Below, in pieces: positions 46,037-64,000 of a stretch of DNA of 64,000 nt (position 1 is its first letter; every line of letters begins with the position of its first letter). Source of the DNA: Vicinamibacterales bacterium (lineage in GTDB: Bacteria; Acidobacteriota; Vicinamibacteria; Vicinamibacterales; UBA8438); NCBI GenBank assembly GCA_963664545.2, contig OY761475.2, positions 1,663,247-1,727,246 on the forward strand. Direction: 5' to 3'. The notes under the pieces were generated by a model. It saw only the letters and a program-made list of their open reading frames with translations, had not been told where the DNA came from and made no database searches. Both the position numbers and the translations under genes were made by a program.

Positions 46037-47518
46037 GTGATCAGGATGTTCCAGTGGGCCCAGATCCGCCACATGCATCTGGTGGAGGGTGTGCCGAAGA
46101 AGGAGGTCGCCCGGCGGTTGAAGCTCGACGTCAAGACGGTGCGGCGGGCCATCGGCCGGCCGACGCCGCCGGTGCGGAGGTCGCCGCCGCGGCCGAGCAG
46201 CCTCGACCCGTGGCGGGAGCGGATCAGGCGGTGGCTGCGCGAGGAGCCGCGGGTGACGGCGAAGCGGATTCGGCGGTTGCTGCTGCCGTTGGCGGGACCG
46301 GTCCCCGCGCGCACGGTGCGGCGCTACGTCGCGGAGCTTCGGGCGGCCGTGTCGCCGAAGGAGGCCTTCGTGCACCGGAGCACCGAGCCCGCGCACACGA
46401 TGGAGGTCGACTTCGGCGAGTCGTGGGTCGACATCGCCGGCGTGCCGTGCAAGGTGAAGTACCTGGTGGCGACGCTGCCGTTCTCCAACGCGTATTTCGC
46501 CAAGGCGTACCCGGTCGAGCGGCTCGAGTCGCTGCTCGACGGCATCGAGTCGGCGTTCCGCTACTTCGGGGGCCTCGTGGACCGCGTCGTCCTCGACAAC
46601 ACCTCGCTGGCCGTCAAGGCCGTGTTGGCGGGCCGGGACCGGGCCGAGACCGAGGCGTTCGAGGCGTTCCGGGGCGGATATCCGTTCCGGGCGGAGTTCT
46701 GCGCGCCGGCCAAGGGCTGGGAGAAGGGTTCCGTGGAGACGGGCGTCAAGTATGTCAGGAACCTCGTGTTCCGGCCGCGGCTGGCGGTCGAGAGCTGGGC
46801 GGCCCTCAACGCGGCGATCATCACGGAGCTGGAGGCCGACCTGCCGACGCGCCAGCTCGAGGACGGGCGTCCGGTCGGGGAGGCGCTGGCGGAGGAGCGC
46901 CGGCGCCTGCGGGCGATGCCCGCGCACCTTCCCGACACCTGCCGCGTCGTCGCGCGGGTGGCCGACAAGTTCGGACACGTCCGCGTGGACCGCGTGACGT
47001 ACTCGGTGCCGATCCGCCACGCCTACCGGCCGGTGTGGGCGAAGCTGTATCACGACCGGGTGGCGGTCGCGGTCGGCACCGAGGTGGTCGCCGAGCATCG
47101 GCGGGCGTTCACGCGGGGCGCGAAGGTCCTCGACGCGCTTCACGTGCTGCCGTTGCTGGAGCGCAAGCACCGGGCGGTGGCCGAGGCGACGGCGCTTCGC
47201 GACTGGCGGCTGGCCCCGGTGTGGCAGCGGGCGCGGACCGAGCTGGGGAGGCACACCCGCAAGCCCGACCAGGAATGGGTGCGGATGCTGCGGCTCATGG
47301 AGACCCATCCGGCGCCGGCCGTCGAGCGGGCGGTGACGGCCGCGCTCGAGCGCCATTCGCCGCGCCTGGAGACGGTGCGGCTCATCCTCCGGCAGCAGGA
47401 GGCCGGCCCGCCGCCGGTGTGCCCGCCGGTCGCGGGCGTGCGTCCGGAGCTGGCGCGGATCGCGGTGCCCGCGCCGAGGCTGTCGGCGTATGACGCGCTG
47501 GTGGAGGGCCCCCGCTGA
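46037..47518 (+). CDS. istA: IS21 transposase IstA
   Basis: HTH 'GVPKKEVARRLKLDVKTVRR' and a DDE core ('MEVDFGES', 'VVLDNTSLAV', 'GWEKGSVE'). ATG 46046, 8 nt after GGAGG, is the likelier start. Confidence 0.9.
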   Translation: MIRMFQWAQIRHMHLVEGVPKKEVARRLKLDVKTVRRAIGRPTPPVRRSPPRPSSLDPWRERIRRWLREEPRVTAKRIRRLLLPLAGPVPARTVRRYVAELRAAVSPKEAFVHRSTEPAHTMEVDFGESWVDIAGVPCKVKYLVATLPFSNAYFAKAYPVERLESLLDGIESAFRYFGGLVDRVVLDNTSLAVKAVLAGRDRAETEAFEAFRGGYPFRAEFCAPAKGWEKGSVETGVKYVRNLVFRPRLAVESWAALNAAIITELEADLPTRQLEDGRPVGEALAEERRRLRAMPAHLPDTCRVVARVADKFGHVRVDRVTYSVPIRHAYRPVWAKLYHDRVAVAVGTEVVAEHRRAFTRGAKVLDALHVLPLLERKHRAVAEATALRDWRLAPVWQRARTELGRHTRKPDQEWVRMLRLMETHPAPAVERAVTAALERHSPRLETVRLILRQQEAGPPPVCPPVAGVRPELARIAVPAPRLSAYDALVEGPR

Positions 47519-48621: not shown

Positions 48622-48896
48622 ACCGCCGGCAACAAGCTTCCGGTTGGTGGCTACGACCCGGCGCTGTCGGGCCCATCAGCATGACCGTGTGCTCGCCGGC
48701 GTCAAGGCGCGTCGCTTCGCTCCGCCCCCGCTTCGCGGGGCTGACGGCCTTGACGCCGGCTGCGCGCACGGTCCCGGGCTGGTCTGCCCGACAGCCCCAC
48801 GGAACGCTCAGCCAGGAGGGCCCGGAAATGTGATGTGTTGAGGAGAATTGGGGGGTCCCTTTTCACGTGGCCACGGGGGTCCCTTTTTCAGTTGCC

Positions 48897-50709
48897 ATTT
48901 CCAGCTCATCAAGTACTCCGCTACGCGCCGTCTCGCTGCCGACGCCCTGTCGAGCATCCACACATCGTCTTCACCCAAGACGGTGGACCTGCCCACAGCG
49001 GAAATCGAGGCCTGAAGCTGAGCGCCATTCGCTTCAAGCAACGCCTTGAGTTCCGCCGCGCCACCCCCGCCAATGCTCCAAGGGTGTTTCCGAAAGCGCT
49101 CACGAGGCACATCCGAGGCGCTCGCGAACACGCTTTGCGAGCCTGCATGGTCGATCTGCTCGACTACCGCGGACCAGACCAGCCCCTTCGCGGGATCATC
49201 AGGTGTCGTCGGCTCGCCGCGGATTCCCATCACAGCCCGTAGGCTCCCTTCAACCGGCCGTCGGTGTCGTCCGAACATGATCACCGTCGGCGTTCCGTGA
49301 CCGGGAATGTACGCACCCGAAGTGTCCAGGACATGCGTCAGATCCCAGCGCGGAATGAACTCCTCGATCAGTTTCCTGCCGAACTCCCGCTTCATGAACG
49401 AGTTGGCCGTGATCATCCCGACGAAGCCCGACGCATCCGCGGTTCCGGACGAGGGCGCATGAGCGAGGTCGAAGAAGCGCTCTGTGAACGGTACGGCGAG
49501 CGAGTACTGCCGGTAGCAGGAGCGAAATCGCTTCCGATATTCGGCGTTGAGCGCCATATCCTTCGGCGTGATGTACGGCGGATTGCCGACCACGACATGA
49601 TAGCGCCGACCCAGAATCTCGCGGAGTGCCTCGGCGTGCTCCGTGCGGTAAACGTGGGTCAGCGGGTCGTGCTCCGGATCGAGGTACTCCTGACGTGCGC
49701 CGGCCAGACCCGGGCGTGGTCCGTGGAGCAAGGAGTCGCCCGCCGCCACGTGGAGTTCGAAGGCGGGCGCGTCGGCAAGGCGGCGCACACCAGACGCCTG
49801 GATGGCGGCGACCGATAGTCGGAAGCGGGTGATCGCCGCAGCGAAGGGATTCAGGTCGACCCCGGCTGTCTGTTCGAGCGCGCGGCCGATGCGTTCGCGC
49901 GGATTCGTGCCCGGCTCGTGCCGCGCCCACTGCGCTACCAGGCGTCGGAAGGCACCCAGCAGGAAATGGCCGGAGCCGCAGGCGGGGTCGATCAGCCGCA
50001 CCTCCCGGAACCCGAACTCCTCAATGGCGGGGTCGAGCGTACGGTCGAGGATGAACTCCTCCACGAACTCCGGCGTCTGGAGCAATGCGTACCGCTTGCG
50101 GGCGCTCTCGGACAGGTCCTGGTAGAGGTCTCCCAGGAAGCGCGTGTCCCAGACCGGATCGGTGAAGTCGTGCAGCAGGGCGCCGGAATCGGGGTCGATC
50201 CGCTGCCACAGGCCAAGGAGCCGGCCCGCGGCGTCGCCCGAGGGGGCGCGGAACTCCTCGCCGGGCTGTTCGAGCGACCAGATGGGATTGTGAGCCTCGT
50301 CGAAGATGCGGTCGGCGACGGGCAGCGCGCCCACCGCGCGAAAGACATGGAGCAGGTAGTCGCGGTCGCTCTCTTCGGGGTGCGCCCGAAAGTAGAGGGT
50401 GTGCTCGTCGAGCGCCCGCTGGCGCCGTCCGCCGGGACCGGACAGCCGCGGCGGGTCGACGAGCGCGTTGTCCTCGAGAAACCGCACGAAGACGCAGCCG
50501 AGAATCCAGCCCACCGCCACTTGGGTCAGGTGCTCGTCGCGCCAGGACTCGTAGCTCTCGGCGGTGCGTTCTTGCGCCACCGCCTCGCGGTGCACGCCGC
50601 GGAGGTGCGCCTCCAGGCCGGAATGCTCCCTGCACCGCGCCTGCAGGTCGTCCTCGAGGTCCGCCCGCAGGCGCTTCAGGTCGGCGAGCAACCGGTCTCT
50701 GTCGATCAC
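48897..50709 (-). pseudogene. PglX/Eco57I-like N6-adenine DNA methyltransferase, 3'-truncated by IS21
   Basis: GTG 50709. 'YALLQTPEFVEEFILDRTL', motif I 'LIDPACGSGHFLL' and motif IV 'VVGNPPYI'. From 48896 the reading frame continues into the IS21 IR ('WKWQLKKGPPW...') to a stop at 48808. Confidence 0.75.
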
Positions 50710-51454: not shown

Positions 51455-52225
51455 GTGTCGGCGTCGTCGCCGCGGGGCGGACTTTGGCACCTCGGCCGCC
51501 TCGGCGAACCACTGGACCAGCCGCCCGGCCAGCTCGGTGAGCTCGCGCCGCGTCTGCCGACGCCGCGCATGCGGCACACCTGGATGACCGCGAACCGCGG
51601 CAGGTCGTGAACCGTCCGGACGCCCATCCGCTAGACGGCGTTCAGGGAGCGGGCACTGAGCCCCATGGCCGCGAGACGGTGTCGCGGCGCGCCTGCTCGC
51701 CGCCGCCGAACGGGGGCGCCGCGCCGACGGGGTCGGTGTCGGTCGTGGGATGTGCCGCCGCGGCTCGGCCAGCGCCCGTTCGCCGCCCTCCTGCTGCCGG
51801 TCGGCACCTACCGGTGCCGCCGGGAACCCGTAGGTGGGTCGGGCCGGAAGCGCCACGCAGCTCTCCGGCCCGAGAGCACATCGCTGCTCCCCGGCCACTG
51901 GCGTCAGCCTCCCCCAGCGCCCGCATCCCACGCCTCCGCCCCCCGCCTCTGCTGGCCTTCGCTGTTCCGCGCCGGTATCATTCGACCAGAGCGCGACCAG
52001 CTTCAGTCGTCTTCCCTCCACGCCGCCACGCCACCCACACGGGAACCCGCCGCGCTCACGCGAACCGCGGCCCGACAACCGGGAAAACTGGCCATGGCTA
52101 CTTCAACGGAAAGCGCTAACAACCCTCGACGCACTTGAATAGCGCGTCTGCGACAACGCCGACAGCCACCAACCCGTCGAGACTCCACTCGCGACCAACC
52201 GCGCATCATCGCCCGCGTCACCGAA
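51455..52225. repeat. copy A of a diverged direct repeat (decayed HhH-gene 5' end, intergenic region and GHKL-gene 5' end)
   Basis: Aligns by eye with 56920-57127 plus 58529-59195. The HhH reading frame carries a TAG and a frameshift. The 'MATSTESAN' start at 52093 is frameshifted. Homology stops exactly at 52225/52226. Confidence 0.75.
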
Positions 52226-55200
52226 CTATTGTCGGCTCAACCATCCAGTGAACATCTCCTCTACCCTCCACTGAGCCAACTCACAATACCGGTCCAGCTC
52301 TGGATGTTTGGTCACAAGACGTTCCAGATCTGACGATGCTTGATCGGCCCTCGGTGGCGATGTGTCCTCCCAAACGGACGCTGCGGCGCGATAACACGCC
52401 GCCGCCAGCTCGACTTCTCCACGCTTAGTCAACAATTCGGCGACCCAGCTGCGAATGTACCCCTTGTTGAGGTTAGCGCTGCGAGCAGGATCCTCCTCCA
52501 GCAACTGGGCCGACTTCACGTAGCATGTCGACGCGTCCTCCACCTCCCCTTCCAGAAACAAACACCGACCAATGTTGCCGTAGAAGTGCGCGCCTCTATC
52601 AGAAACTCTCTCTCCAGATCGAGTAACGGATCCCAATTCCTCCCCATCCAAAAAAACCCGAAGCGCTTCTGCCACCCGCCCTCCGTCCCGCAAGGACAAT
52701 GCTAGGTTGTGCTTGGTGGAGAATGCGGTGTCCACCGAGCTAACCTCCTTCAGTTTCGCGCCGCGCTCGCCCCAGTGGATAGCTAGTTCGTATCTCTGTG
52801 TGTACCAGTAGCCGTAGCACCGAAGATCGCATAGCAGAATGTACTGTGCACTTTTTCCTGGAATTGCTCGTTCATATCGTTCCAGCAACGGTTCTGCCTC
52901 TGTATGACCAACCTGGATCATCGCAGTCAGACATCGCTCAAATATAGCGTCGAAGTGCTTGTACGCCGTGCAGGCTTCTGCCCAGTCCAGGCCCGAAAAA
53001 AGCCGTAGCCCAAGTCGGATCATCTCTTCCTGGTAGCCTCGATTCAGTAATGGTTCCCCAATCTCTTCAATGGTGTTCGTAGCTTCTTCCAGCTTGCCGA
53101 TGGTAATCTGAAGCTCTGCCTTTCTGGTCCAGTGTTCAAGGATATCATAAGATGGTTCTTTCTGTAGCAGTCCCTTGAATCGGCCGATCATACGGTCAAG
53201 AAATCCCAAAATCGCACCAACGTATTTTTCACGATCCTTCTTCGGAAATCCCGTTCTAACAAACTCGCGAATTATTGGATGCAAACCGAGAAGCGGTTCG
53301 CCCTCCGGTTGGCTTCTGGTTTCTATAAGATGAAAAGATTTCAGCGCCCTGAGAGATCTGTTTACGCGGTTAATGTTGGCCCCGGGAAGCAGATCTAGTA
53401 GTCGACTCTCGGGCTCTGGACGATCCAACTCCGCCATGGTGCGCAAGACAATACGTTGCTGTTCATTTAACATGCCCCAGATCGTTCTTGTCGTTTCCGG
53501 CAGTGTAGCTGCTTCTCTTCCAATTAGATCGAGCGCGCCACGTAGGCCATCTTTGTGGCGAAGAGCTTGCATCACCACTAGGCTTACCCATAGAGGATGG
53601 CCATTAGTCGCTTCATGCAATTCACCGGCAAGGTGATGATCTCGCTGAGGAACACCACGGGCCGCGAGTAGCTCCAGAGTGTCGGACTCCGAAAAGCCAA
53701 CCAGCGTCACTCTCAGCGCACGGGATTCATCCACCTGCACGTCAGGCCGACACGTAAAGAGGAATAAACTCCTGTGGTCGCGTGCTTGAGCCTCTGACAC
53801 GAGGACGTCGAGACCCTTTACCGGCTTAAGCGTCTCAAGATCGACATATTGATCGACGTTGTCAAAAACGAGCAGTGCCCTTCGATCGCGCAGAAGGTAA
53901 AACAAGACACCCACCACCGCCCTGATGTCGCTGACTTCGATCTGGCCAGCGTCTATTGCACCATTACTCAAGCGTTCGATGAGGCGCAACAGTTGGGTGC
54001 CGAGGCGGTCGCTCTCTTCGCGGCAGTCTCGCCAATCCCAGATACCAAAACGCGAAGTATCGGGCATTGCGTATTCCTGTAGGAAGCGTCCGGCAAGGGC
54101 TGACTTTCCTTGACCGCCGATCCCCGTGACAAAAGCGACTGGCATCGTGGACGCGGCAAGCAGTGCGATCTCCCCACTACGACCCACCCAAGGGGCAATC
54201 AGCAAGGGTCTGTCGGACTCGGGTGAAGACAGTGGTGCTGTGGGAAAATCGATCTGCACATGTACGCTACGCGGTCCGACGGAGCGTTCCGTTACGAGCG
54301 TTTGTACGCTTGCGCCAGCGGGAGCTGAAGTCGCGAGAGGATAGCTGGATTGCAGGTCGTTGAGCAGATCTGTGAATAAGGAACAACAGTCAATTCCCCG
54401 GTATAGTTGCACACGGCCGCGGCCGATGCCGGGTCGCAACGCACTCAGCAGCGGTTGGTTGTTGGCTTCGATTTGGTCACCGTCGTTTGAGTGGAACGCC
54501 CAGAGAATCTCGGGGCTACTCGTGGAGTCCGCCAACAGGTCCACGAGCGTAGTGGTAATCACGTCATCCCAACCGCCATATCCGAGGACCACGAGAATTC
54601 CAGAATTGATGACGTGAGCCAGAGAATGGCGAAGTTGGGGCCGGGGCTGAAGCAATTGTTGCGGCGTGTGGAGAGTGTCGTAGCCCCACCAGTATCCGTG
54701 GAGATGCACAATGTGAGTACCTTCAGCGACGGTCTGGCCGAGGGTGCCATCTCCCTGGAGCACGGTACGGTAGCATTGGCCGTGGTGTTTTGCGATGGCA
54801 ATTTCGATTAGAGGGTCGAAGTTTGTGGTCAGAACAGATTGACCAAACGTGTCTTTACAGGCAACGAGCAACCGACCGAAGGAGTCGACTCCCGACGGCA
54901 AGATCCAGGCGTCGGGATGTTTGTCAAGGGTGTTGCATGTGGGGGCGTCGGCATCATTGGCGGTGGTCTCAGGAAGAACGGCGGGCCATGTCTTGGCATC
55001 GAGAGCTTGCCACACTGCTGAGCGCACTACGCGGTTGACAACGTCTTGGCCACGTCTGCCGTGGAGGAACTCAAATGCGTTCTGGTATCGATGGGCGGAA
55101 TTGTCAGATAGGTGTTGTTGGAGCTCGGATTGTGCGTCGGTGTCGGCGAACTCCTTTTTGATTAGATCAATCATGCCGTCCACACCAAGCACGCCATGGG

Positions 55201-55324
55201 CACCCGGGTAATCCGGATAGGACAGGGCGGAGCCGACGAGAAAGACCACGGAGCGGTCGTTTCTGTTGGCGGCGTAGCATAGTCGGTCAACGAGGTCGGC
55301 GGAGATATGGTACCTATTCTGCAT
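52226..55324 (-). CDS. SIR2-STAND(NB-ARC-like)-TPR NTPase, Avs/AVAST type V-like antiphage candidate
   Basis: ATG 55324 follows GAGG. SIR2_2 motifs: 'VVFLVGSALS', 'VLTTNFDPLIE', 'IVHLHGYW', 'LVVLGYGGWDD'. Walker A 'VTGIGGQGKSAL' and Walker B 'ALLVFDNVD'. About 450 aa of TPR-like C-terminus. Sampled lines are about 50% GC versus about 70% in the flanks. Confidence 0.85.
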   Translation of the reverse strand: MQNRYHISADLVDRLCYAANRNDRSVVFLVGSALSYPDYPGAHGVLGVDGMIDLIKKEFADTDAQSELQQHLSDNSAHRYQNAFEFLHGRRGQDVVNRVVRSAVWQALDAKTWPAVLPETTANDADAPTCNTLDKHPDAWILPSGVDSFGRLLVACKDTFGQSVLTTNFDPLIEIAIAKHHGQCYRTVLQGDGTLGQTVAEGTHIVHLHGYWWGYDTLHTPQQLLQPRPQLRHSLAHVINSGILVVLGYGGWDDVITTTLVDLLADSTSSPEILWAFHSNDGDQIEANNQPLLSALRPGIGRGRVQLYRGIDCCSLFTDLLNDLQSSYPLATSAPAGASVQTLVTERSVGPRSVHVQIDFPTAPLSSPESDRPLLIAPWVGRSGEIALLAASTMPVAFVTGIGGQGKSALAGRFLQEYAMPDTSRFGIWDWRDCREESDRLGTQLLRLIERLSNGAIDAGQIEVSDIRAVVGVLFYLLRDRRALLVFDNVDQYVDLETLKPVKGLDVLVSEAQARDHRSLFLFTCRPDVQVDESRALRVTLVGFSESDTLELLAARGVPQRDHHLAGELHEATNGHPLWVSLVVMQALRHKDGLRGALDLIGREAATLPETTRTIWGMLNEQQRIVLRTMAELDRPEPESRLLDLLPGANINRVNRSLRALKSFHLIETRSQPEGEPLLGLHPIIREFVRTGFPKKDREKYVGAILGFLDRMIGRFKGLLQKEPSYDILEHWTRKAELQITIGKLEEATNTIEEIGEPLLNRGYQEEMIRLGLRLFSGLDWAEACTAYKHFDAIFERCLTAMIQVGHTEAEPLLERYERAIPGKSAQYILLCDLRCYGYWYTQRYELAIHWGERGAKLKEVSSVDTAFSTKHNLALSLRDGGRVAEALRVFLDGEELGSVTRSGERVSDRGAHFYGNIGRCLFLEGEVEDASTCYVKSAQLLEEDPARSANLNKGYIRSWVAELLTKRGEVELAAACYRAAASVWEDTSPPRADQASSDLERLVTKHPELDRYCELAQWRVEEMFTGWLSRQ

Positions 55325-55431
55325 GGCTTTTACCTCGCGAAGGGGAAGAAAAGCAGTTGCGGTTGTCGCGGGTGTAGCGGTGGGGTCGGGCGGATGCGGT
55401 TGGCATTCCAGCGAGGGCTCGGCTTTAGACG

Positions 55432-55453
55432 GCCGAGGCATGTATGCCTCGGC
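55432..55453. other. perfect 10-bp palindrome GCCGAGGCAT-GT-ATGCCTCGGC
   Basis: Lies about 110 nt upstream of the SIR2-STAND start, near where GC content drops. Could be an operator or the terminator of the upstream minus-strand gene. Confidence 0.4.
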
Positions 55454-55943
55454 GTCTGCCGACGGTGAAGCGGAGGCCGACCGATGCCCTTGGGGCAGCG
55501 CCGGATGCCTGACGAGGCGCAGGAGGGTAGCCCGAGCCGGTGCTGCGGCGCGGCCGGCGGGCGGCGCGCAGGGAGGTGCGCCAGTGGGTGCCGGCCTCGT
55601 GGGCGGGCGGCGCTCAACCGATCGGACTGGACAGCGCGACCGCGGCACTCCGTGCCGGTGCCATGTGGCGAGGACGACCGCGAGGTCCGCCGTGGCGATT
55701 CGGCCGCGCGTAGCGGCGGCCCCCATCGGGCGGTGGTCCGCGAGAGCCGGTGAGGCGGTGAGCGGCACACCGCTGCTGGAAGCCCCGCTGCATCCCGCTG
55801 GGGCACGTCAGGAAAGTTGGGGATTCGCGGCTGGGGCAAGGACTCGGCGGACCGGCGGATAGATGCCCGTGGGCGTCCCAGCGCGCGACTGGTCCAGCGC
55901 TTGACGCCGACGCCACACCGCTGGGGCCATCCCGCCGGCGCCG

Positions 55944-57127
55944 TCAACCGCCCGACCGGCCGTCGCCGCGTCCGCGGGCGAGGAGCTCCGACGCCGTCGC
56001 GCACTCGATGGCCCAGTCGCCGACCCGCCCGAGCCGCTCCGGGTCCGCGACCCCGGCCAGGGCGGCGGCCAGCCCCTCCGCCGCGGCCGCGTCGAACTTT
56101 CTGGCCGTCAGACGGCAGAGCAGCGCCCGCTCTTTGTCGCGCCTCCTGCTCGATGCCCTGGTCGACGCCCTGCGCCCGCCCCTGCTCGAGCCATTCACGC
56201 ACGTTCTCTTCCAGCATCGTCTAGGCCTCCTGCAACTCCGCCAGCGGCTCCCGTCCGTCCGCCGTCCGCCGGTCCGCCAACCGCAGCCCGTGGCGGAGCC
56301 ACTTCGCGAACGCCCGCGTCAAGTGGTCGTCCGGCGCCGCCCGCAGGGGGTCGATCAGCAGCTTCAGCGCCCCCGCCCAGACGCGCCGCGTCGCGCGTCT
56401 TCTCCAGGCCGACGAGCGCCGACACCCGGTTGTCCGGCGGCAGGTCCGCGTCGGACGTCCACGCCGCGTCCAGAAGATAGTATCGCCGCGACGGTTGGTA
56501 TGGTGCCAGCATCGCGCCCCCGCCGCAACCAGGTCTGCCATCTCGACCGGCGCCGTCCACGGCCGCCGGCCGTTGTAGAGGACGGCGGGCAGCACCGGCG
56601 GCAGGGCCCCCCCGTGCTCGCGGATCGCGCCGTCGGCGTCCAGCCGCTGGTAGAGCAGCGCCGTGTAGGTGAGCATGCGCACCGCCATCGCCGGGTCGAC
56701 GGTGGCCTGTAACTCGAGGAGCAGCACGAGGTAGAGCCAGTGCTCCTCGCCGAAGCGGATGCGCCACAGGAGGTCGCCGTGACGCTGCTGCAGATCTCTG
56801 CCCGCGTCGCGCAGCAGCGCGCGGGAGAGCGTGGACGAGCTGCGGCGGCTCCTTTCTGCTCGCTGGGCGGGCCGCGCAGTCGCGGCGCAACGGCGAGCTG
56901 GCGCGCGGCCCGCCTCGGCGGGAACGTCGTCGTCGGAGTGGACCTTCGGCCCTCCGGCCGCCTCGGGGAACCGCCGGGCCAGCCGCCGCACCAGCTCGGT
57001 GAGCTCGCGCCGGGTCTGGATGCCGACGCCGCGCATGCGGTTCACCTGGATGAGCGGGAACCGCGGCAGGTTGTGAACGGTGCGGATGCCCATCCGCTCG
57101 ATGGCGTTCATGGCGCGGGTGCTGAGC
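55944..57127 (-). pseudogene. Rpn/YhgA-like PD-(D/E)XK nuclease (with DUF4351 tail) behind an HhH module; multiply frameshifted and IS-disrupted
   Basis: Family blocks are spread over at least 3 frames: 'DLLWRIRFGEEHWLYLVLLLELQATVDPAMAVRMLTY...LPPVLPAVLYNG', 'APYQPSRRYYLLD', 'LTRAFAKWL', 'MLEENVREWLEQGRAQG' and 'LLCRLTARKFDAAAAEGL'. Upstream in-frame 'LSTRAMNAIERMGIRTVHNL...MRGVGIQTRRELTELV' is an RpoA-alphaCTD-like HhH. Confidence 0.6.
56920..57127. repeat. copy B (left part) of the diverged direct repeat
   Basis: Matches 51455-51665 of copy A. Interrupted by the IS4 element. Confidence 0.75.
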
Positions 57128-58528
57128 CCATAGGCGCTAACTTGTTTTCCTGACGTGGCTGGCGTATCCTGGCATGCGGAATGCATGACCGGAAGACCGG
57201 CCCGGTGGACGAGGACTGGGATGTGCTGCTGTCGTTCCTTCCGCCGGATTGGCGCGAACTGGCGCGGGACACCGGGGCGTTGAAGGGGCTGCGCAAGGAC
57301 AAGGCGGTCGACAACCTCCTGCGGACCCTCCTGCTGCACCTCGGCTGCGGACACTCGTTGCGGGAAACGGCGGTCCGGGCCCGACAGGCGCATCTGGCGA
57401 GCCTGTCCGACGTGGCGCTGTTGAAGCGGCTGAGGAAGTCCAAGGGTTGGCTGCACGCGCTGTGTGTCCGTCTGTTCGAGGAGCAGGGTCTGGCCGTCGT
57501 CCCCGGGGGCGCGTTCCAGGTGCGGGCGGTGGACGCGACGACGGTGAAGGAACCGGGTCCGAGCGGGTCGCTGTGGCGGCTGCACTACAGCGTGGGCCTG
57601 CCGTCGCTGACATGCGACTTCTTCAAGCTGACGGAGACCGAGGGACCCGGCACGGGGGAATCGTTGGCGCAGTTTCCGATCCGCGCCGGCGACCACGTGC
57701 TGGCCGACCGCGGCTATTCGACGGCCCGGGGGATTCGCCACGTGGTGGACGCGGGGGGGCGCCTGATTGTGCGTGTCAATACCGGGTCGCTGCCGCTGTG
57801 CACGGCGGCCGGTCGGCGGTTCGACCTGCTGGCCGCGGTCGGGTCGGTCACCCGTCCGGGCACCGTCCGGTCCTGGGCGACGACGGTGGAGGCCCCGGAC
57901 GAGCGGGGCGGCCCGGCGCGCGCCATTGCGGGCCGGGTCTGCGTGCTCCGCAAGTCCGCGGAAGCCATCCGCCTGGCGCACCGGAAAGCCCGCCGCGACG
58001 CCGCCCGCAAGGGCAACGAGGTGGAAGCGGCCACGCTGCGGTTCGCCGAGTACGTGATCGTCTTCACGACCTTCCCCGAGCCGCCCTTCTCCGCCGCGGA
58101 CGTGCTGGAGTGGTATCGCCTGCGCTGGCAGGTCGAGTTGGTGTTCAAGCGCTTCAAGTCGCTGGCCCAGTTGGGGCACGTGCCGAAGCGCGCGGACGAC
58201 AGCGCCAAGGCGTGGCTCTACGGGAAACTGTTCGTGGCGCTGCTGGTGGAGAAGCTGATCCACCACGCTCGCGCGATTTCCCCCTGGGGCTACGACGTAC
58301 CGGCGCCGTCGCCCCCGCAGCGCGTGGCGTGACTTCAAGTTCGTGCTCAACCAGGTCACGCGGGCCATCGAACCGCCGCTGCCGCTGGCGCGCATGCTCG
58401 CGGACTGGCGAACGATCTCCGGCGCGCTTGCCGAGCCGCCACGTCGCCGACAGCCCCAACTCTCCGCGTACTTCGGCTGGGTGGACCCGCTGGAGGACCG
58501 AGCGGCTCAAACAAGTTAGCGCCTATGG
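57128..58528 (+). mobile_element. IS4-family insertion sequence with 9-bp target-site duplication
   Basis: IRs are CCATAGGCGCTAACTTGTTT (57128-57147) and its reverse complement at 58509-58528. Direct repeat GTGCTGAGC at 57119-57127 and 58529-58537. The IR/TSD border is ambiguous by 2-3 nt. Confidence 0.85.
57181..58332 (+). CDS. IS4-family DDE transposase
   Basis: 383 aa. 'VRAVDATTVKEPG', 'HVLADRGYS' and 'YRLRWQVELVFKRFKS' (the Y-2-R-3-E-6-K region typical of IS4). Confidence 0.85.
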   Translation: MHDRKTGPVDEDWDVLLSFLPPDWRELARDTGALKGLRKDKAVDNLLRTLLLHLGCGHSLRETAVRARQAHLASLSDVALLKRLRKSKGWLHALCVRLFEEQGLAVVPGGAFQVRAVDATTVKEPGPSGSLWRLHYSVGLPSLTCDFFKLTETEGPGTGESLAQFPIRAGDHVLADRGYSTARGIRHVVDAGGRLIVRVNTGSLPLCTAAGRRFDLLAAVGSVTRPGTVRSWATTVEAPDERGGPARAIAGRVCVLRKSAEAIRLAHRKARRDAARKGNEVEAATLRFAEYVIVFTTFPEPPFSAADVLEWYRLRWQVELVFKRFKSLAQLGHVPKRADDSAKAWLYGKLFVALLVEKLIHHARAISPWGYDVPAPSPPQRVA

Positions 58529-59195
58529 GTGCTGAGCCCCCGTGGTCGCAAGCAGGGTGCGGCCACCGCCGTCCAAGGAGGGCGACCGTCAGACGCCCCC
58601 CCGCGGCCCCGTCGCGTCCATCTGCTTCGACCGTAGCGAGACCATCGGGGCGGAGCGCCGGCAGCACCGCGGCCGCGTGCGCCCGTGCGTCTGGGTGAAA
58701 GCGACGTCGGCCCCGTCGGCGCCCCGTGCCGACCCTGCCGCCGCTCGGCCTGCTCGCCCGCCCTCCTGCTACCGGGCCGGTGCCTACCGGTGCCGCCGGG
58801 AACCCGTAGGTGGGTCGGGCCGGAAGCGACACGTAGCTCTCCGGCCAGACAGCCCATCGCGGCTCCCCGGCCACTGGCGTCAGCCTCCCCTGCGTCCGCA
58901 CCCCACGTCTCCGCCCCCCCGCCTCTGCTGGCCTTCGCCGCCCCACCCCGGTATCATTCGACCAGAGCGCGACCAGCTTCCACCGTCTTCCGTCCGCACC
59001 GCCCAGACGGGGACCCGCCGCGCTCACCCGAACCGCAGCGCGACAACCGGGGGAACTGGCCATGGCAACTTCAACGGAAAGCGCGAACACCCTCGACGCG
59101 CTTGAACAGCGCATCCGCGACAACGCCGACAGCCACCAACCCGTCGAGACTCCACTCGCGACCAGCCAGCGCATCATCGCCCGCGTCACCGACGG
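58529..59195. repeat. copy B (right part) of the diverged direct repeat, running into the intact GHKL gene
   Basis: Matches about 51665-52225 of copy A, with a length difference in the middle. The strongest match runs from 'cctaccggtgccgccgggaacccgtaggtgggtcgggccggaagcg' onward. Confidence 0.75.
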
Positions 59196-60933
59196 AATCT
59201 ACCGCGAGCCCTGGGCGGCTTTCCGTGAACTGATCGCCAACGCCTACGACGCCGACGCAACCCACGTGACGATCGAGACCGGCCAACCCGATTTTCGCGA
59301 AGTGACGGTGCAGGACGACGGCATCGGCATGTCTCCCAGAACGCTCGCGTACGTCCTGACGAACATCGGCGGCAGCTCCAAGAGGACCGCCGCCGGAACC
59401 GCACTGAACACCGCGCGGGCCGACACACCCAATCTCAGCCCCGCCGGCCGCCCGCTGATCGGCAAAATCGGCATCGGCCTGTTTGCCGTCGCGCAGTTGA
59501 CCCAACACTTCCAGATCATCACGAAGGCCGCCGGTGAAAGCCACAGATTGTCCGCGACCGTACAGCTCCGCACTCACGACGAGACCAAAGCTCAGCAGCA
59601 TGACACCGAATACGTCGCGGGACTCGTCGAGATCGTGTCCCAAAGGGTTCCCGAGCACGAACAAGGCTCGCACGGTACGGCCGTGGTGCTCTACCAACTG
59701 CGCGATGAAGTGCGTCGCACGCTCCAGAGCGCCGAACTCTGGAAGGCGGCCTCCGTCGAAACTGACGGCGGTGAATCCGTTCAGAAGCCACCACAATTTC
59801 ACATTGGCCACTCCGCGAACGAGTTGGCTCCCCATCTTCCGTGGCAGGGCTCCGACAGTCCGACCGAACGGTTCCAACAGATCTTTGCCGCCACTCGAAA
59901 AGCAACCGGCGGAACCAAGTCCGCCGACCTGGACCACTTCGACGAGTATCTGCGCCTCATATGGAAACTAAGCTTGTCGCTCCCTCTGCGCTACATCGAC
60001 GGCCATCCTTTCGATCAAGATGCATCCAGCGGCCTTCATCTTCTGGAACTCCCGGAATCGGACCAAGCCCGAGAAATCAAGCTGTCTCCCCAGGAATCAC
60101 TGCGGAGCCATCTCGACCTCCGAACAGCGTGCGATACCGCCGAGATCCCGTTTTCTGTCACTCTAGACGGCGTAGAGCTCCGCCGTCCCATCCGCTTGAC
60201 AGATAAGCTCGAAAAGCCCTCCGGGGTCGGCAAGCCCGTCATGATCGCGGCGAAGCAGAACAACCCGTTTATTCCGGGTATTCTCGATCGTGCAGGCGGG
60301 CGTCTGTCGTTCGAAGCCTACCTTTACTGGAACAGCCGGATCATTCCGAAGGAAACCGTGGGAGTGCTCGTGCGTATCTGCGGGGCTAGCGGGACCCTCT
60401 TTGACCCCACCTTCTTGAACTACAAGGTCTCTGAACAAACACGCTTGCGCCAGATAACCGCCGAGATATTCGTCCATGAGGGGCTCGACAGCGCGATCAA
60501 TATCGATCGAGAGTCTTTCAACTACAGCCACCCCCACTTCTTGTTCATCCAGAAATGGCTACATAGGGCGCTTCGCCTCCTGGCCAACCGCCTGAAGAGC
60601 CTAGCCGCCCGCGATCTCGCGCGGGCCAAAGTGAAACTCCGCGGCGAGGCGCTGGCGTACGCGGTTCAAGTGTGGGCACGGCGCTTGGGTGCCGATGCCG
60701 ATCCGCCATATTCAGATCCACTTGGCGAGTCGTTGCCCGCCGCGGTCGGGGCCGCCGACGTCGATTGGCCCTCCAAGAAGATACTCGACAGTAACGGCAA
60801 ACCCGTGGGGACCGGCCGAATACGCGCGCTGGCCGCGATTTTAGAGGCGTACGGCGTCTTGTCACATCTCGCCGTCGAGGATCGATGCCGGCTCATCACC
60901 GATATAGTTCGTCTTCCCGGGACGAAATCATGA
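59062..60933 (+). CDS. GHKL-superfamily ATPase (Hsp90/MutL/MORC-like, HATPase_c_3-type) with a long uncharacterised C-terminal region
   Basis: N-box 'FRELIANAYDADATHV', G1 'VQDDGIGMS' and G2 'GKIGIGLFAVAQL', in Bergerat-fold order. The remaining about 400 aa have no motif I recognise. Confidence 0.8.
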   Translation: MATSTESANTLDALEQRIRDNADSHQPVETPLATSQRIIARVTDGIYREPWAAFRELIANAYDADATHVTIETGQPDFREVTVQDDGIGMSPRTLAYVLTNIGGSSKRTAAGTALNTARADTPNLSPAGRPLIGKIGIGLFAVAQLTQHFQIITKAAGESHRLSATVQLRTHDETKAQQHDTEYVAGLVEIVSQRVPEHEQGSHGTAVVLYQLRDEVRRTLQSAELWKAASVETDGGESVQKPPQFHIGHSANELAPHLPWQGSDSPTERFQQIFAATRKATGGTKSADLDHFDEYLRLIWKLSLSLPLRYIDGHPFDQDASSGLHLLELPESDQAREIKLSPQESLRSHLDLRTACDTAEIPFSVTLDGVELRRPIRLTDKLEKPSGVGKPVMIAAKQNNPFIPGILDRAGGRLSFEAYLYWNSRIIPKETVGVLVRICGASGTLFDPTFLNYKVSEQTRLRQITAEIFVHEGLDSAINIDRESFNYSHPHFLFIQKWLHRALRLLANRLKSLAARDLARAKVKLRGEALAYAVQVWARRLGADADPPYSDPLGESLPAAVGAADVDWPSKKILDSNGKPVGTGRIRALAAILEAYGVLSHLAVEDRCRLITDIVRLPGTKS

Positions 60934-61967
60934 CGATCGCCGACGACGTTCTGCCCGCCGAAATCGCGGATCCGGCGGTGCCTGTCCCGCTTGACCGATT
61001 GCTCCCGTGGCATCAACCCCGGAAGCAACTGGTGAGGGAGGAGCAGTGGCTCCGGCTTTCGCGACGACTTATCAAGGCGGAAAGCAGCCGGTTGGGGTCT
61101 TCCGCGCAAGGCGGCGAGCGACCGGAGATCCGGTACTTGACGCTGCCGGGGATCGACTACATCGATGTACGGCAGCTCGCCGACGTGTGTCGCGACTGGA
61201 ACTGCCGCTTGACCAGCATTGGTTTTCACGCGGGTGACGGACGAAATCCGCAGGTCGCGCGGGCGAAGTTGCGGGAAAAGTCACTGATCGACGCCGGTTG
61301 CATTACCCGTCACTCGCACACCTATGCTAGGCGGTTTGAGGACATCAGCGAGACCAGCAGCAATGCTTACCAAGATATCGAACAGCGGGGACCATTTCAT
61401 ATAGTAAATGTTGATGCGTGCGGATCGCTCGCTCCACCTACTGCGAAGCACGCCCGGCGGCTGGTCGAGGCGGTTTTTCGGGTCGTGGAGCTGCAGTTTC
61501 AAAAAACGACTGGCCGGTGGTTGCTATTTGTCACTACGGACGCCCGCCGGGAATCCGTGTCGGGAGAGACCTTGGAGAGGCTTTGTCAGACCATATTCAA
61601 GAATGCCGATGAAAACGCCGGCTTTCGCGGCGTGGCGGCTCGGCTTCTCGATCCGGGAGCGGTTGACGTCAGAGCGGCAGCGGAGAGCGCGACGGAGCAG
61701 ACCGGTCTCGCATTTCTGAAACTGTTTTCCCTAGGGCTGGCCAAGTGGCTACTGCATTTGGCGCAAGGAACGAAGCGAGAAATGCAGACACATAACTCCT
61801 ACTGTTACTCTACGACAGGTAAAGGTGACCGCAGGCCGTCGATGGCGTGCTTGGCCTTTGAGTTTCTTCCGCCGCCGCCCGGCCTTGAGGATCCCTTCGG
61901 GGTTTCCCGTGCTCGACCGACGCGGAATCCGCGGCCTGGAGCTCAGGGATCCCCTCATTTTCATTAG
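60930..61967 (+). CDS. hypothetical partner protein of the GHKL ATPase
   Basis: ATG 60930 overlaps the GHKL stop (ATGA). 'YLTLPGIDYIDV' and 'FHIVNVDACGS' loosely recall strands 1 and 4 of Rossmann-type methyltransferases, but there is no Gly-rich SAM loop. Family unknown. Confidence 0.5.
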   Translation: MTIADDVLPAEIADPAVPVPLDRLLPWHQPRKQLVREEQWLRLSRRLIKAESSRLGSSAQGGERPEIRYLTLPGIDYIDVRQLADVCRDWNCRLTSIGFHAGDGRNPQVARAKLREKSLIDAGCITRHSHTYARRFEDISETSSNAYQDIEQRGPFHIVNVDACGSLAPPTAKHARRLVEAVFRVVELQFQKTTGRWLLFVTTDARRESVSGETLERLCQTIFKNADENAGFRGVAARLLDPGAVDVRAAAESATEQTGLAFLKLFSLGLAKWLLHLAQGTKREMQTHNSYCYSTTGKGDRRPSMACLAFEFLPPPPGLEDPFGVSRARPTRNPRPGAQGSPHFH

Positions 61968-62057
61968 AAGTCAACAGAACGAGCCCTTTCCTTGACCGGA
62001 GATTTTTTCCCTGCAAGACGTTGCAAAATGTTGCCCGTCCGGGTACTATATTGACCC

Positions 62058-63242
62058 ATGCGCATGCATCAGAAACCGTCAAAGGCCGGTGCCCGACTGA
62101 TCGAGAGACGAGATCTCATGAACTTCATAACCACGTTGCACGACGGTGATTTGCATGCCAAACGCGTGCTATCGTTGGCCAATGCAACCTTGGGTGTGTT
62201 GGCGAGTGCCTCTCTCGCGATCCACGCTGTGGGACGTGGCTTGGCCCAAGCTATGGGCACGTTAACCAAGCACGGTGTGAAACAGGTGGACCGGCTCCTG
62301 AGCAATCAAGGCGTTGACGTCTGGACTTTCTTCGCCTGTTGGACGCCGTACATCGTTGGTGCTCGCGAGGAAGTGGTTGTCGCGCTGGATTGGACTAGCT
62401 TTGCCTCCGACGGGCAGGACACGATCGTGCTGTCGATGCTGACCGGCCATGGCCGCGCGACGCCCCTGCTGTGGAAGACCGTGGAGACATCGACTCTGAA
62501 GGGCAACCAGCGGCGCTACGAGTACGAAGTGCTGTCCCGGTTGCGGGAGGTACTGCCGGCTGGGGTGAGGGTTACGGTCGTCGCGGATCGGGGCTTTGGG
62601 GATTGCAAGCTGTTCTACCTGCTGACGGAGGAGCTGGCCTTCGAATACGTGATTCGGTTGCGCGGAGACATCTACGTAACGAATGCACGGGGCGACCAGC
62701 GGCTGGCGGCGGACTGGGTCGGCTCTCGGGGCCGTGCGCGCCGATTGGTGGGTGCCCGGGTGACCGATGCTCACGAATGGCCCGTGGGTGCCGTCGTGTG
62801 TGTACATGATCGGAAGATGGACGAACCGTGGTGCCTAGTGGCCAGCGACGCGAAGGTACCCACGCCGGTGTTGATCCGGTACTACGGCAAGCGCTGGGGC
62901 ATTGAAGCGGGCTTTCGGGACATCAAGGACATGCGCTTCGGGATGGGTCTGTCGTCGATGCGCGTTTCGAGCCCGGGTCGCCGAGACCGGCTATTGCTGA
63001 TCAGCGCGCTGGCCATCGCGGTGTTGTCGTTGCTAGGTGCAGCAGGCGAGCGCATCGGCTATGATCGCTGGCTGAGGGCGAACACAGTGAAGCGGCGCAC
63101 ACATTCTCTTTTTCGACAAGGTTTGATGCTGTATCACCATCTTCCCAATTGGTCCGACGACCGGGTTCGCCCATTGATGGAAACGTTCGGAAAGATGCTG
63201 CTGGAACACCGGGTATACCGAGAGGTCTTCGGCGTAATTTGA
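62058..63242 (+). CDS. IS4-family DDE transposase (element ends not identified)
   Basis: 'VVVALDWTSF', 'VTVVADRGFGD' and 'YGKRWGIEAGFRDIKD' are DDE/YREK blocks. I could not find convincing terminal IRs by eye. Confidence 0.8.
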   Translation: MRMHQKPSKAGARLIERRDLMNFITTLHDGDLHAKRVLSLANATLGVLASASLAIHAVGRGLAQAMGTLTKHGVKQVDRLLSNQGVDVWTFFACWTPYIVGAREEVVVALDWTSFASDGQDTIVLSMLTGHGRATPLLWKTVETSTLKGNQRRYEYEVLSRLREVLPAGVRVTVVADRGFGDCKLFYLLTEELAFEYVIRLRGDIYVTNARGDQRLAADWVGSRGRARRLVGARVTDAHEWPVGAVVCVHDRKMDEPWCLVASDAKVPTPVLIRYYGKRWGIEAGFRDIKDMRFGMGLSSMRVSSPGRRDRLLLISALAIAVLSLLGAAGERIGYDRWLRANTVKRRTHSLFRQGLMLYHHLPNWSDDRVRPLMETFGKMLLEHRVYREVFGVI

Positions 63243-63406
63243 CGTTGAAACGGAAAATGAGGGGATTCATGAGGGCCTGGAGATACCTCGCTCAGAGCGG
63301 CGGAGAAGGTACGCGACATGGCCGATGTCGATAAGCTCATGGCCGACGACCGCGAGCTTCGCAAGCGTATGACACGGGATCTGCGAGAGTGTCTCGAGGA
63401 GGCGGG

Positions 63407-64000
63407 CTATGAAGCTCGGGCGCTCGCGATGCTTGACGAGCTGGAGGCGTAGGCGGGCACGGAATCTTCTGCGGGAACGCTCAAGAGGGCAGAGCGTATG
63501 GAAACAGCTATCGCGTGGGCGAGCGGCGGCGGTACCGCTTGGCTCACCTGATCGATCTGCCCGGAGAGCGTTCCTTCGAGAACGTAGTCGTCCGGAAATC
63601 CCTGAAGCTGCATGGCCTCAAACACGCTTAGCCGTCGCCGGCCGTCGGGATGAACGTGCACTTCGCGGTGCCCGTAAGAAACGGTGATGCTGGGCTCGTC
63701 CCAGGCGAGCGTCTTGAAGCTACGTGCGGAAGAGTACCCCTCCTTCAGGGAGCCGTCGAAGAACCTGGACGACTTGGGGCTCATGCACCAGTGATTGGGG
63801 CGATGAGGAATGGCGTGCCGCTCAAGGCCGCGCGTGAAGTAGGCGGGCGGGGGTAGATCGCGGATTACCTCGCTTACGGTGCGTCGGCGGTCGGTGCCGA
63901 CGGGCTGCCGCCAATGTTGCGCCGCCAGAGTGTCTTTGCGGAAGGCCAACACGAAGAGGCGTTCGCGGCGTTGGGGTACGGAATGACGGACCGCGTCCGC
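63407..64000 (-). CDS. dcm: DNA (cytosine-5) methyltransferase, C-terminal part (gene continues past the window end)
   Basis: The open frame reaches 64000. 'VPQRRERLFVLAF' (motif VIII-like QRR.R), 'SVFEAMQLQGFPDDY' (motif IX) and 'QVSQAVPPPLAHAIA' (motif X variant). Confidence 0.75.
   Translation of the reverse strand, partial: ADAVRHSVPQRRERLFVLAFRKDTLAAQHWRQPVGTDRRRTVSEVIRDLPPPAYFTRGLERHAIPHRPNHWCMSPKSSRFFDGSLKEGYSSARSFKTLAWDEPSITVSYGHREVHVHPDGRRRLSVFEAMQLQGFPDDYVLEGTLSGQIDQVSQAVPPPLAHAIAVSIRSALLSVPAEDSVPAYASSSSSIASARAS

Follow-up and report, generated by a model that had tools for sequence, protein, structure and literature searches.

A disrupted copy of a conserved three-gene cassette of a MORC-like ATPase, a PP_RS20740 family protein and a C5 cytosine methyltransferase in a Vicinamibacterales bacterium

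The 64,000 nucleotides analysed here (the window) are part of the genome of a Vicinamibacterales bacterium (contig OY761475.2 of assembly GCA_963664545.2, positions 1,663,247 to 1,727,246). Near the right end of the window lies a pair of overlapping genes that an earlier inspection of the letters, made without database searches and called here the sequence-only reading, had put forward as an undescribed two-gene defence system. We find that this pair is two-thirds of a strictly conserved three-gene cassette that consists of a GHKL ATPase (gene 1), a protein of the PP_RS20740 family (gene 2) and a C5 cytosine DNA methyltransferase of the dcm type. The copy in the window is a relic disrupted by an insertion sequence (IS), with an ATPase gene that is still intact and a methyltransferase gene that is open as far as it lies in the window. 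We estimate at about 60% the probability that the trio is a self-contained, horizontally mobile, ATP-dependent module resembling restriction-modification (R-M) systems and keyed to C5 methylation, belonging to the class of ATPases and operons named 'paraMORC'.

The cassette was recognised by the synteny of its genes. A scan limited to one genome per species gave 22 loci, 21 of which hold a substantial homologue of gene 2 (24-65% identity). At all 21, a full-length orthologue of gene 1 lies directly upstream of gene 2 and a C5-methyltransferase gene lies directly downstream in convergent orientation. The tail-to-tail overlap between gene 2 and the methyltransferase gene is conserved at 37-46 nt. 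These loci come from Acidobacteriota (Vicinamibacterales), Alpha- and Gammaproteobacteria, Binatia, Rhodothermales and other taxa. Distant members that were sampled, with identities of about 25-30%, show the same association in another form: at L026 and L030/L031 the three genes are co-directional, in the order methyltransferase, GHKL ATPase, gene 2, and at L027 the trio is kept with a gene for the Vsr endonuclease in front of it. Linkage that survives rearrangement is a classic signature of a functional unit, and the existence of two gene orders with the linkage kept therefore argues that the trio is such a unit. As in R-M systems, the methyltransferase gene is thus locked to the candidate restriction genes, at 21 of 21 loci and in the distant relatives. 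The suggestion made earlier that the methyltransferase gene might be a cognate modification component is supported by this adjacency, and the description of a system of two genes has to be given up, as the methyltransferase is an obligate third member.

Genes 1 and 2 of the window overlap by ATGA at 60930-60933, which implies translational coupling, and at one locus (L029) these two genes alone are visible. Taken by themselves, these observations would suit a defence system made of the GHKL ATPase and its partner only, acting independently of the neighbouring dcm gene. We consider such a system extremely improbable, since a C5-methyltransferase gene is adjacent at every locus with enough flanking DNA, in either gene order, and gene 2 overlaps dcm by 46 nt in the window once the IS is removed, whereas the contig of L029 is only 4 kb long and ends ~450 bp past gene 2.

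In an all-against-all clustering of the flanking open reading frames (ORFs) of the 21 loci, vsr was the sole other recurrent gene, found at 11 of them. A fourth conserved gene, such as a helicase or a nuclease, was looked for in the same clustering and rejected, the clusters other than Vsr being opposite-strand shadow ORFs. At L030 the trio stands alone with housekeeping genes on all sides, which indicates that it is self-contained. An exhaustive profile search gave 717 representatives of the gene-2 family at the 50% cluster level, and the best 150 of these 717 either measure about 380-460 aa or are fragments below that length, none of them being a large domain fusion. Genes 1 and 2 each have hundreds of homologues, so that both can be taken as real genes. 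The phyletic spread of the cassette is patchy. Of the loci L004-L024 and L030, some have DruE helicases, type I R-M genes or components of MADS within 7 kb, mad2 being found in three ORFs and mad5 in two; transposases and integrases also occur in flanks. The sequence-only reading had staked its proposal on the linkage of gene-2 homologues both to GHKL genes and to defence islands; the former holds at 21 of 21 loci, the latter at many loci and not at all of them. A methyltransferase locked to two co-translated genes, in a mobile, patchily distributed module of low GC content that is often found among defence genes, is what leads us to an R-M type of logic. A gene-2 remnant of 38 aa that spans the PFHIVNVDACGS region (L025:7001-7114) was seen in a metagenome-assembled genome (MAG) that has, at another place, the complete cassette L012.

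Gene 1 (59062..60933, forward strand) is an intact ORF for a 623-aa ATPase with a GHKL and an S5/transducer domain, similar to MORC, TopoVI-B and Hsp90. The N-box FRELIANAYDAD (59221..59256, aa 54-65, with the catalytic Glu56 and the Mg-binding Asn60), the G1 box DDGIGMS (59314..59334, aa 85-91) and the G2 box GKIGIGLFAV (59461..59490, aa 134-143) follow one another on the forward strand and show the Bergerat-fold patterns ExxxNxxD, DxGxG and GxxGxG of the GHKL superfamily. Nine of their residues (E56, N60 and D63 in the N-box, D85, G87 and G89 in G1, G134, G137 and G139 in G2) are invariant down to a homologue of 32% identity. Pfam HATPase_c_3 matches the protein at 3e-15 (56.9 bits, cut-off 25), and the gene has 96% nucleotide identity to that of a close relative (L032). 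In the AlphaFold2 model (pLDDT 80.6, pTM 0.78) the GHKL domain is followed by the S5/transducer domain, a helix of 52 residues (aa 491-542) and a small helical C-terminus. The best structural matches found by Foldseek are the ATPase modules of MORC3, MORC2 and MORC4 (E ~1e-11 over ~520 columns), among them DNA-bound MORC2, and these are followed by Hsp90/TRAP1 and TopoVI-B. The assignment of gene 1 to the GHKL ATPases, proposed from the ordered boxes, is confirmed by their invariance, by the Pfam match and by the MORC-like model. The nearest candidate that we could find by eye for the MORC-specific S5 motif GhXhhpXXRhl of PMC2292703, G434-VLVRICGAS, is off-pattern, and gene 1 is treated here as paraMORC-like and not as a true MORC.

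The highest conservation of gene 1 outside the GHKL core falls in the block AINIDRESFNYSHPHF (60493..60540, forward strand, aa 478-493). Twelve residues of this block, including NIDRES and HPH, are invariant in 10 sequences, the 32%-identical one among them; the invariant positions include N480-S485, N487, H490, P491 and H492. In the model the block forms a flexible loop of low pLDDT just before the long helix. Transducer domains of related ATPases carry at this place a basic residue that senses ATP, namely Arg380 in the NLSRE motif of Hsp90 and the switch lysine of GyrB and TopoVI-B. Judging by this shared position, we read AINIDRESFNYSHPHF as a putative switch loop, with Arg483 as its likely basic residue, and not as a nuclease motif. 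A hidden nuclease of the HNH or His-Me type, which could be seen in the pattern 'DRES...HPH', was rejected as the primary reading because the position of the block fits an ATP-sensing loop. HPH (aa 490-492) has, moreover, the HxH form described for paraMORC5, a resemblance that serves as a lead only.

Gene 2 had been described as a complete protein of 345 aa. The ORF that begins at 60930 indeed ends at 61967 and contains YLTLPGIDYIDV and FHIVNVDACGS, but almost all homologues are ~393-400 aa long and the window protein ends early in their alignment. The gene is interrupted after codon 337 by an IS of 1,332 bp (61942..63273, forward strand), which has a DDE_Tnp_1 transposase ORF (62058-63242) and terminal inverted repeats of ~21 bp (CTCAGGGATCCCCTCATTTTC and CTCATGAATCCCCTCATTTTC), and which is bracketed by a perfect 9-bp target-site duplication, GGCCTGGAG, at 61933..61941 and 63274..63282. 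AQGSPHFH, with which the 345-aa ORF ends, is a stretch of eight residues encoded by the IS. Excision of the IS together with a single copy of the duplication yields a 393-aa ORF (60930-61941 joined to 63283-63452), which is 95% identical, without gaps, to P0302, the intact allele of L032; the DNA of this relative is 96% and 93% identical to the window on the two sides of the IS and lacks the IS itself. The 5' part of gene 2 (60930..61941, forward strand, codons 1-337) holds the methyltransferase-like fold described below, and the displaced 3' part (63283..63452, forward strand, codons 338-393 and the stop codon), in frame after excision, encodes the C-terminal helical region. The methyltransferase gene is present downstream, as had been noted, but the IS does not lie between the pair and dcm, being within gene 2.

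Because gene 2 loses to the IS its final 56 residues, which form a conserved helical region, the system in the window is most probably inactive, and the restriction side of this cassette is most likely dead. The same element was seen in L033 (L033:6115-7451 against window 61939-63274; 98% identity over 1,337 nt), ~105 nt further downstream in gene 2, and this is an independent second insertion of the same element in the same gene. A single metagenome sample is the source of both the L033 contig and the intact allele of L032. In a Rhodothermales cassette gene 1 is split by an insertion of ~2.2 kb with an IS110-family transposase (L021:3896-6144), and apparent frameshifts, which could be MAG assembly errors, are present in gene 1 at L009 and in gene 2 at L023.

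The sequence-only reading had found no family for gene 2. The protein passes the cut-off of the NCBIfam model NF047698, 'PP_RS20740 family protein' (257.9 bits, cut-off 200), over profile positions 7-324 of 384, the C-terminal end of the profile being unmatched because the IS removes this end of the protein, and Pfam PF28273 is precomputed on every gene-2 homologue. Both entries describe a curated family that has no assigned function. We found only one paper that names the gene, a study of furfural tolerance (PMC9630843). In Pseudomonas putida KT2440 a V338F substitution in PP_RS20740 arose during adaptive evolution on furfural, and over-expression of the V338F allele improved furfural conversion; the gene was called hypothetical and no mechanism was offered (PMC9630843).

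The AlphaFold2 model of the restored gene 2, made with 51 sequences, is an alpha/beta protein with helices at 339-392 (pLDDT 88, pTM 0.89). All of the 50 best PDB matches listed by Foldseek are class-I methyltransferases, except three GRAS-domain complexes; they include the Trm5-like PH0793, PsiM, the HsdM subunit of StySJI, NNMT and HNMT. The named matches to viral models are methyltransferases and capping enzymes (cap and DNA adenine methyltransferases). The earlier guess of a Rossmann fold like that of methyltransferases, without the Gly-rich loop that binds S-adenosylmethionine (SAM), thus agrees with the model and its neighbours, on weak scores. The loop after strand 1 reads PGxDxxD and has a single Gly, so the Gly-rich SAM loop is absent, and no conserved acidic residue follows strand 2 in 56 members. 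Eleven residues are invariant in these 56 members, whose identities are 23-45%: W27, H28, K32 and R36, all on an N-terminal helix, and D79, N160, D162, Q189, N225, F232 and K272. Nearly invariant are P73, G74, D76, C164 and Y293. D76 and D79 after strand 1, N160-x-D162-x-C164 after strand 4, Q189 and K272 make up a polar cluster at the canonical active-site position, which argues that gene 2 is an enzyme or has a ligand-binding site and is not a mere scaffold.

One may ask whether gene 2 is itself a second active DNA methyltransferase, of unusual sequence, with gene 1 alone serving as the restriction enzyme in the manner of the type II enzymes HgiDII and BbrUII. Its class-I fold, with StySJI HsdM and other N6-adenine-type enzymes among the top neighbours, would be in keeping with this, as would the weak N-terminal matches of gene 1 to the BbrUII/HgiDII family (NF050001) and to REase_II models of PADLOC (3e-8 and 1.4e-7, the only PADLOC matches of gene 1). 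However, the NF050001 match reaches 63.6 bits where the cut-off is 550 and covers residues 52-221 only, which are the GHKL domain, and gene 1 has no nuclease domain of its own. Gene 2, in turn, lacks the Gly-rich SAM loop and the conserved acidic residue after strand 2, and none of 51 members of its family has a methyltransferase Pfam match at E<=10, nor do any families recur among their matches at that threshold. We therefore regard a second methyltransferase as very unlikely. Other sequence searches with gene 2 gave nothing meaningful in the PDB (with single-family and with broad profiles), no match in PHROGs and none in PADLOC at E<=1.

The third gene, dcm (63407..64000, reverse strand), is represented in the window by its C-terminal ~197 codons, its N-terminal half lying beyond the end. 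It is convergent with gene 2, and it is the true 3' end of gene 2, as restored by excision of the IS, that overlaps the stop end of dcm. The fragment matches Pfam PF00145 at 1.9e-17 (64 bits, cut-off 22) and carries a QRRER motif; its orthologue in L032 has 351 aa, and a comparison of 12 full-length methyltransferase orthologues shows no variation in the motifs PCQ, ENV and QxRxR.

Vsr, when encoded beside dcm, has the standard role of repairing the T:G mismatches that result from deamination of 5-methylcytosine (5mC), and in E. coli it is stimulated by MutL. One may thus speculate that genes 1 and 2 are accessories of Dcm/Vsr very-short-patch repair, with gene 1 acting like MutL and gene 2 sensing T:G mismatches or hemimethylated sites, so that the mutational cost of a mobile C5-methyltransferase is limited. 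The GHKL fold is common to gene 1 and MutL, Vsr is the only other recurrent gene of the loci (and is found at L027 as well), and a possible recruitment of such ATPases to mismatch repair is noted by Iyer et al. 2008 (PMC2292703). Yet about half of the loci have no Vsr, among them that of the closest relative, where none was found within +/-10 kb of the cassette, while genes 1 and 2 are never missing. Moreover, many ordinary C5 R-M systems also carry Vsr; R-M modules typically show a convergent overlap with the methyltransferase gene, a low GC content and a place in defence islands, as seen here; and repeated inactivation of genes 1 and 2 by IS elements is not expected for a beneficial repair factor. 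A role limited to repair is, on balance, improbable.

How might an R-M-like module of this composition work? Its Dcm-type C5-methyltransferase, the domain and catalytic motifs of which are evident, is presumed to be active and would label the DNA of the host at some short, likewise presumed, motif. Gene 2 may be a subunit that contacts DNA, as sensor or effector, and engages unmethylated sites. Gene 1 would dimerise on ATP, as MORC, MutL and TopoVI-B do, clamp or loop the DNA, and couple recognition of the site to a damaging step, much as TopoVI-B drives TopoVI-A. Our best guess for this step is that the acidic residues clustered in gene 2 cleave DNA in a metal-dependent way. Vsr, where it is encoded, at about half of the loci, would repair the T:G mismatches that the methylation brings about through deamination. 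A physical complex of the proteins, its sensitivity to methylation and the kind of damage it may cause are predictions of this model, which is built on the linkage, the folds and the conserved motifs.

Several observations weigh against an R-M type of function and have to be set beside those that led us to it. A recognisable endonuclease, which R-M systems have, was not found in sequence and fold searches of the cassette proteins: no nuclease domain was detected in gene 1 or in gene 2 with Pfam, NCBIfam, PADLOC and PHROGs, and the fold of the gene 1 model contains only GHKL, S5 and helices. The resemblance of gene 2 to methyltransferases is weak (Foldseek E 3e-5 to 4e-4, TM 0.3-0.44) and purely structural. 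The possibility that gene 2 is a diverged duplicate of the cassette C5-methyltransferase was rejected, as the hhalign probability of 0.5% is not significant; the local alignment sets C164 of gene 2 on the catalytic Cys of PCQ, which we do not count as evidence. Some loci lie outside defence islands and are flanked by housekeeping genes only, and no copies of the cassette were found in the plasmid or phage collections searched. In favour of an R-M type of function, genes 1 and 2 have been inactivated repeatedly, by three independent IS insertions and two frameshifts, with the methyltransferase gene intact at all loci, a pattern that fits a costly restriction function; the bias (5 vs 0) is, however, not significant (p ~0.23 given the lengths of the genes).

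The lack of a nuclease domain in any of the three core proteins is also the starting point for a nuclease-free explanation, in which the trio is an epigenetic silencing machine. According to this explanation the C5-methyltransferase writes a mark of self, gene 2, as a catalytically repurposed protein, reads methylated or unmethylated sites by flipping and inspecting the target cytosine, and the GHKL clamp that it loads traps or compacts unmarked, foreign DNA without cutting it, so that replication and transcription are blocked. In structure gene 1 is matched best by the ATPase modules of eukaryotic MORC2, MORC3 and MORC4, with DNA-bound MORC2 among them, and its long helix and small helical end domain are suited to dimerisation; MORC2 is reported, in the title of PMC12216690, to be a DNA-compaction machine. 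If true, such silencing would mean that the way in which eukaryotes couple MORC proteins to DNA methylation had a prokaryotic forerunner in the trio. It is, however, without bacterial precedent, and the invariant Asp/Asn/Asp/Lys cluster of gene 2 looks catalytic, which is more than a mere reader surface would call for. An undetected nuclease is weak evidence for the absence of one, and the recurrence of knock-outs by IS elements points to something costly or toxic, with which cleavage agrees no less well. We consider silencing without cleavage unlikely and retain the R-M-like module as the favoured explanation.

The general class to which the trio would belong has been predicted before. ATPases with GHKL and S5 domains were assigned to putative R-M operons that also encode cytosine methylases and Vsr in the computational study of Iyer, Abhiman and Aravind (2008; PMC2292703), in which ATP-driven looping or clamping of DNA in R-M is proposed as the role of these paraMORCs; the statement in the sequence-only reading that MORC-like GHKL ATPases had been predicted in R-M-like systems is therefore correct. 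The trio resembles the paraMORC operons, as described there, in that an intact GHKL and S5 ATPase stands beside a cytosine methylase, often with Vsr, in a patchy and laterally mobile arrangement. It differs from most of them, in which an SF-II helicase, a recognisable nuclease (RE-fold, HNH, HKD or TIR) or both are encoded, and its invariable partner with a methyltransferase fold is not named in the main text of PMC2292703. One branch has since been validated experimentally: in GHKL-Shedu (paraMORC3) the N-terminal GHKL ATPase of VcSduA from Vibrio cholerae is required for anti-phage defence (PMC12137116). VcSduA acts as one protein, which carries at its C-terminus a DUF4263 nuclease of the PD-(D/E)xK type and has no methyltransferase, whereas gene 1 is locked to a partner and to a C5-methyltransferase. 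No DUF4263 was found in gene 1 with Pfam, NCBIfam or PADLOC, and its model is helical only past the S5 domain, which places it outside paraMORC3/type I-D Shedu.

Other known systems are similar in part. HgiDII and BbrUII are like gene 1 in having a GHKL domain at the N-terminus and a length of ~650 aa, and M.HgiDII is a C5-methyltransferase; the match to gene 1 is confined to the GHKL domain and remains far below the family cut-off, as given above, and we know of no PP_RS20740-type partner of these enzymes. TopoVI, with a GHKL and transducer B subunit and a Spo11-like A subunit that cleaves, is comparable: gene 1 is structurally TopoVI-B-like, with a basic 'switch' loop and then a long transducer helix, and its translation is coupled to that of a distinct Rossmann-like partner whose probable substrate is DNA, a parallel drawn at the level of function only. 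Gene 2 is not detectably a homologue of Spo11, with its TOPRIM and winged-helix domains, its Foldseek matches being methyltransferase folds, and the trio, unlike TopoVI, is tied to a DNA methyltransferase. Mza, a five-gene defence system that Gao and colleagues are said to have described in 2020, reportedly includes a MORC-type GHKL ATPase, and would resemble the trio as a multi-gene defence using an ATPase of the MORC radiation. The Dcm, Vsr and MutL proteins of E. coli likewise combine a C5-methyltransferase, Vsr and a GHKL ATPase; these are housekeeping genes with mutL unlinked, whereas in the trio Vsr is optional, the ATPase and its partner are obligatory and the whole is mobile. PADLOC-DB v2, which includes Mza, MADS and the PDC and HEC candidates, gave no system-specific HMM match for either protein of the pair. 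In keeping with the earlier statement that no named and tested system has this composition, we found none for the trio of GHKL ATPase, PP_RS20740 protein and C5-methyltransferase in PADLOC, in the published literature or in annotation.

If our interpretation holds, the cassette would be a compact and widely dispersed restriction-type system, with the 717 representatives of its gene-2 family spread over several phyla, whose 'restriction' half would consist of a MORC/TopoVI-B-like ATPase and a protein with a methyltransferase fold, with no recognisable nuclease. Working out how the trio harms unmethylated DNA would then be the first experimental test of the 2008 prediction of prokaryotic MORC relatives in R-M. 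It would also give a function to the curated orphan family PP_RS20740/PF28273, and it could show how a MORC ATPase became linked to DNA methylation before the eukaryotes.

The cassette of the window lies in an island of foreign appearance. Between 59 and 64 kb the GC content is 59-63%, while most of the window has about 70-75%, and the neighbours include a SIR2-STAND gene, AbiEii, a type I specificity (S) subunit, an Eco57I/PglX-like methyltransferase and two DDE transposases in addition to the C5-methyltransferase fragment. The defence-island context and horizontal acquisition inferred earlier are thus supported. Upstream of gene 1 a second insertion (57130..58774, forward strand) with a DDE transposase (57181-58332) can be defined relative to a duplicate of the region; its left end is near 57131 (GGCGCTAACTTG...), and the upstream segment that it cuts is common to L032 and L033, in diverged form. 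L032 is without both IS elements of the window, and L033 carries the gene-2 IS at its other site.

The duplicate in question (51482..52225, forward strand) is decayed, with an in-frame TAG and indels. It contains the upstream region and the first ~44 codons of gene 1, matches 56944-57129 and 58775-~59195 at 84-94%, and stops precisely where the 3' end of the SIR2-STAND gene lies (52226-55768, reverse strand; SIR2_2, NB-ARC/NACHT and TPR domains, 1,180 aa). A duplicated promoter and 5' end had been claimed here: the upstream region and the 5' end are duplicated, and the promoter is not supported, since no sigma-70-like promoter was detected upstream of gene 1 in a scan that is itself uninformative in DNA of 72% GC. 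The SIR2-STAND gene has the lowest GC content of the window (52-58%) and is absent from the close relatives L032 and L033. Two interchangeable cargos at one locus, as had been proposed, are only one possible reading of this arrangement, given that the two relatives simply lack the SIR2-STAND gene. The duplicated segment of 0.74 kb brackets the gene, which suggests its recent insertion with a local duplication, and we consider such an event at least as likely as an exchange of cargos.

Some further features of the island were observed. The left segment of the duplication (51482-51663, and 56221-57129 on the reverse strand) encodes the N-terminus of a minus-strand protein with a helix-hairpin-helix-like stretch (…MNAIERMGIRTVHNLPRFPLIQVNRMRGVGIQTRRELTELVRRL…), which resembles, by eye only, the RNA polymerase alpha subunit's C-terminal domain; the surrounding ORFs have no Pfam match. 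The PglX-like methyltransferase ORF, of Eco57I/MmeI type (48808-50709, reverse strand, 633 aa), aligns only to the N-terminal ~555 codons of its 1,223-aa orthologue in L032 (80% nucleotide identity), and its 3' end has probably been truncated or recombined. An ORF at 46037-47518 (forward strand) has a Mu-transposase C-terminal domain and lies beside a 374-aa ORF that matches no family, so that this region may be another mobile element in the island. Far from the cassette, positions 6001-7000 have a GC content of 80%, the maximum of the window.

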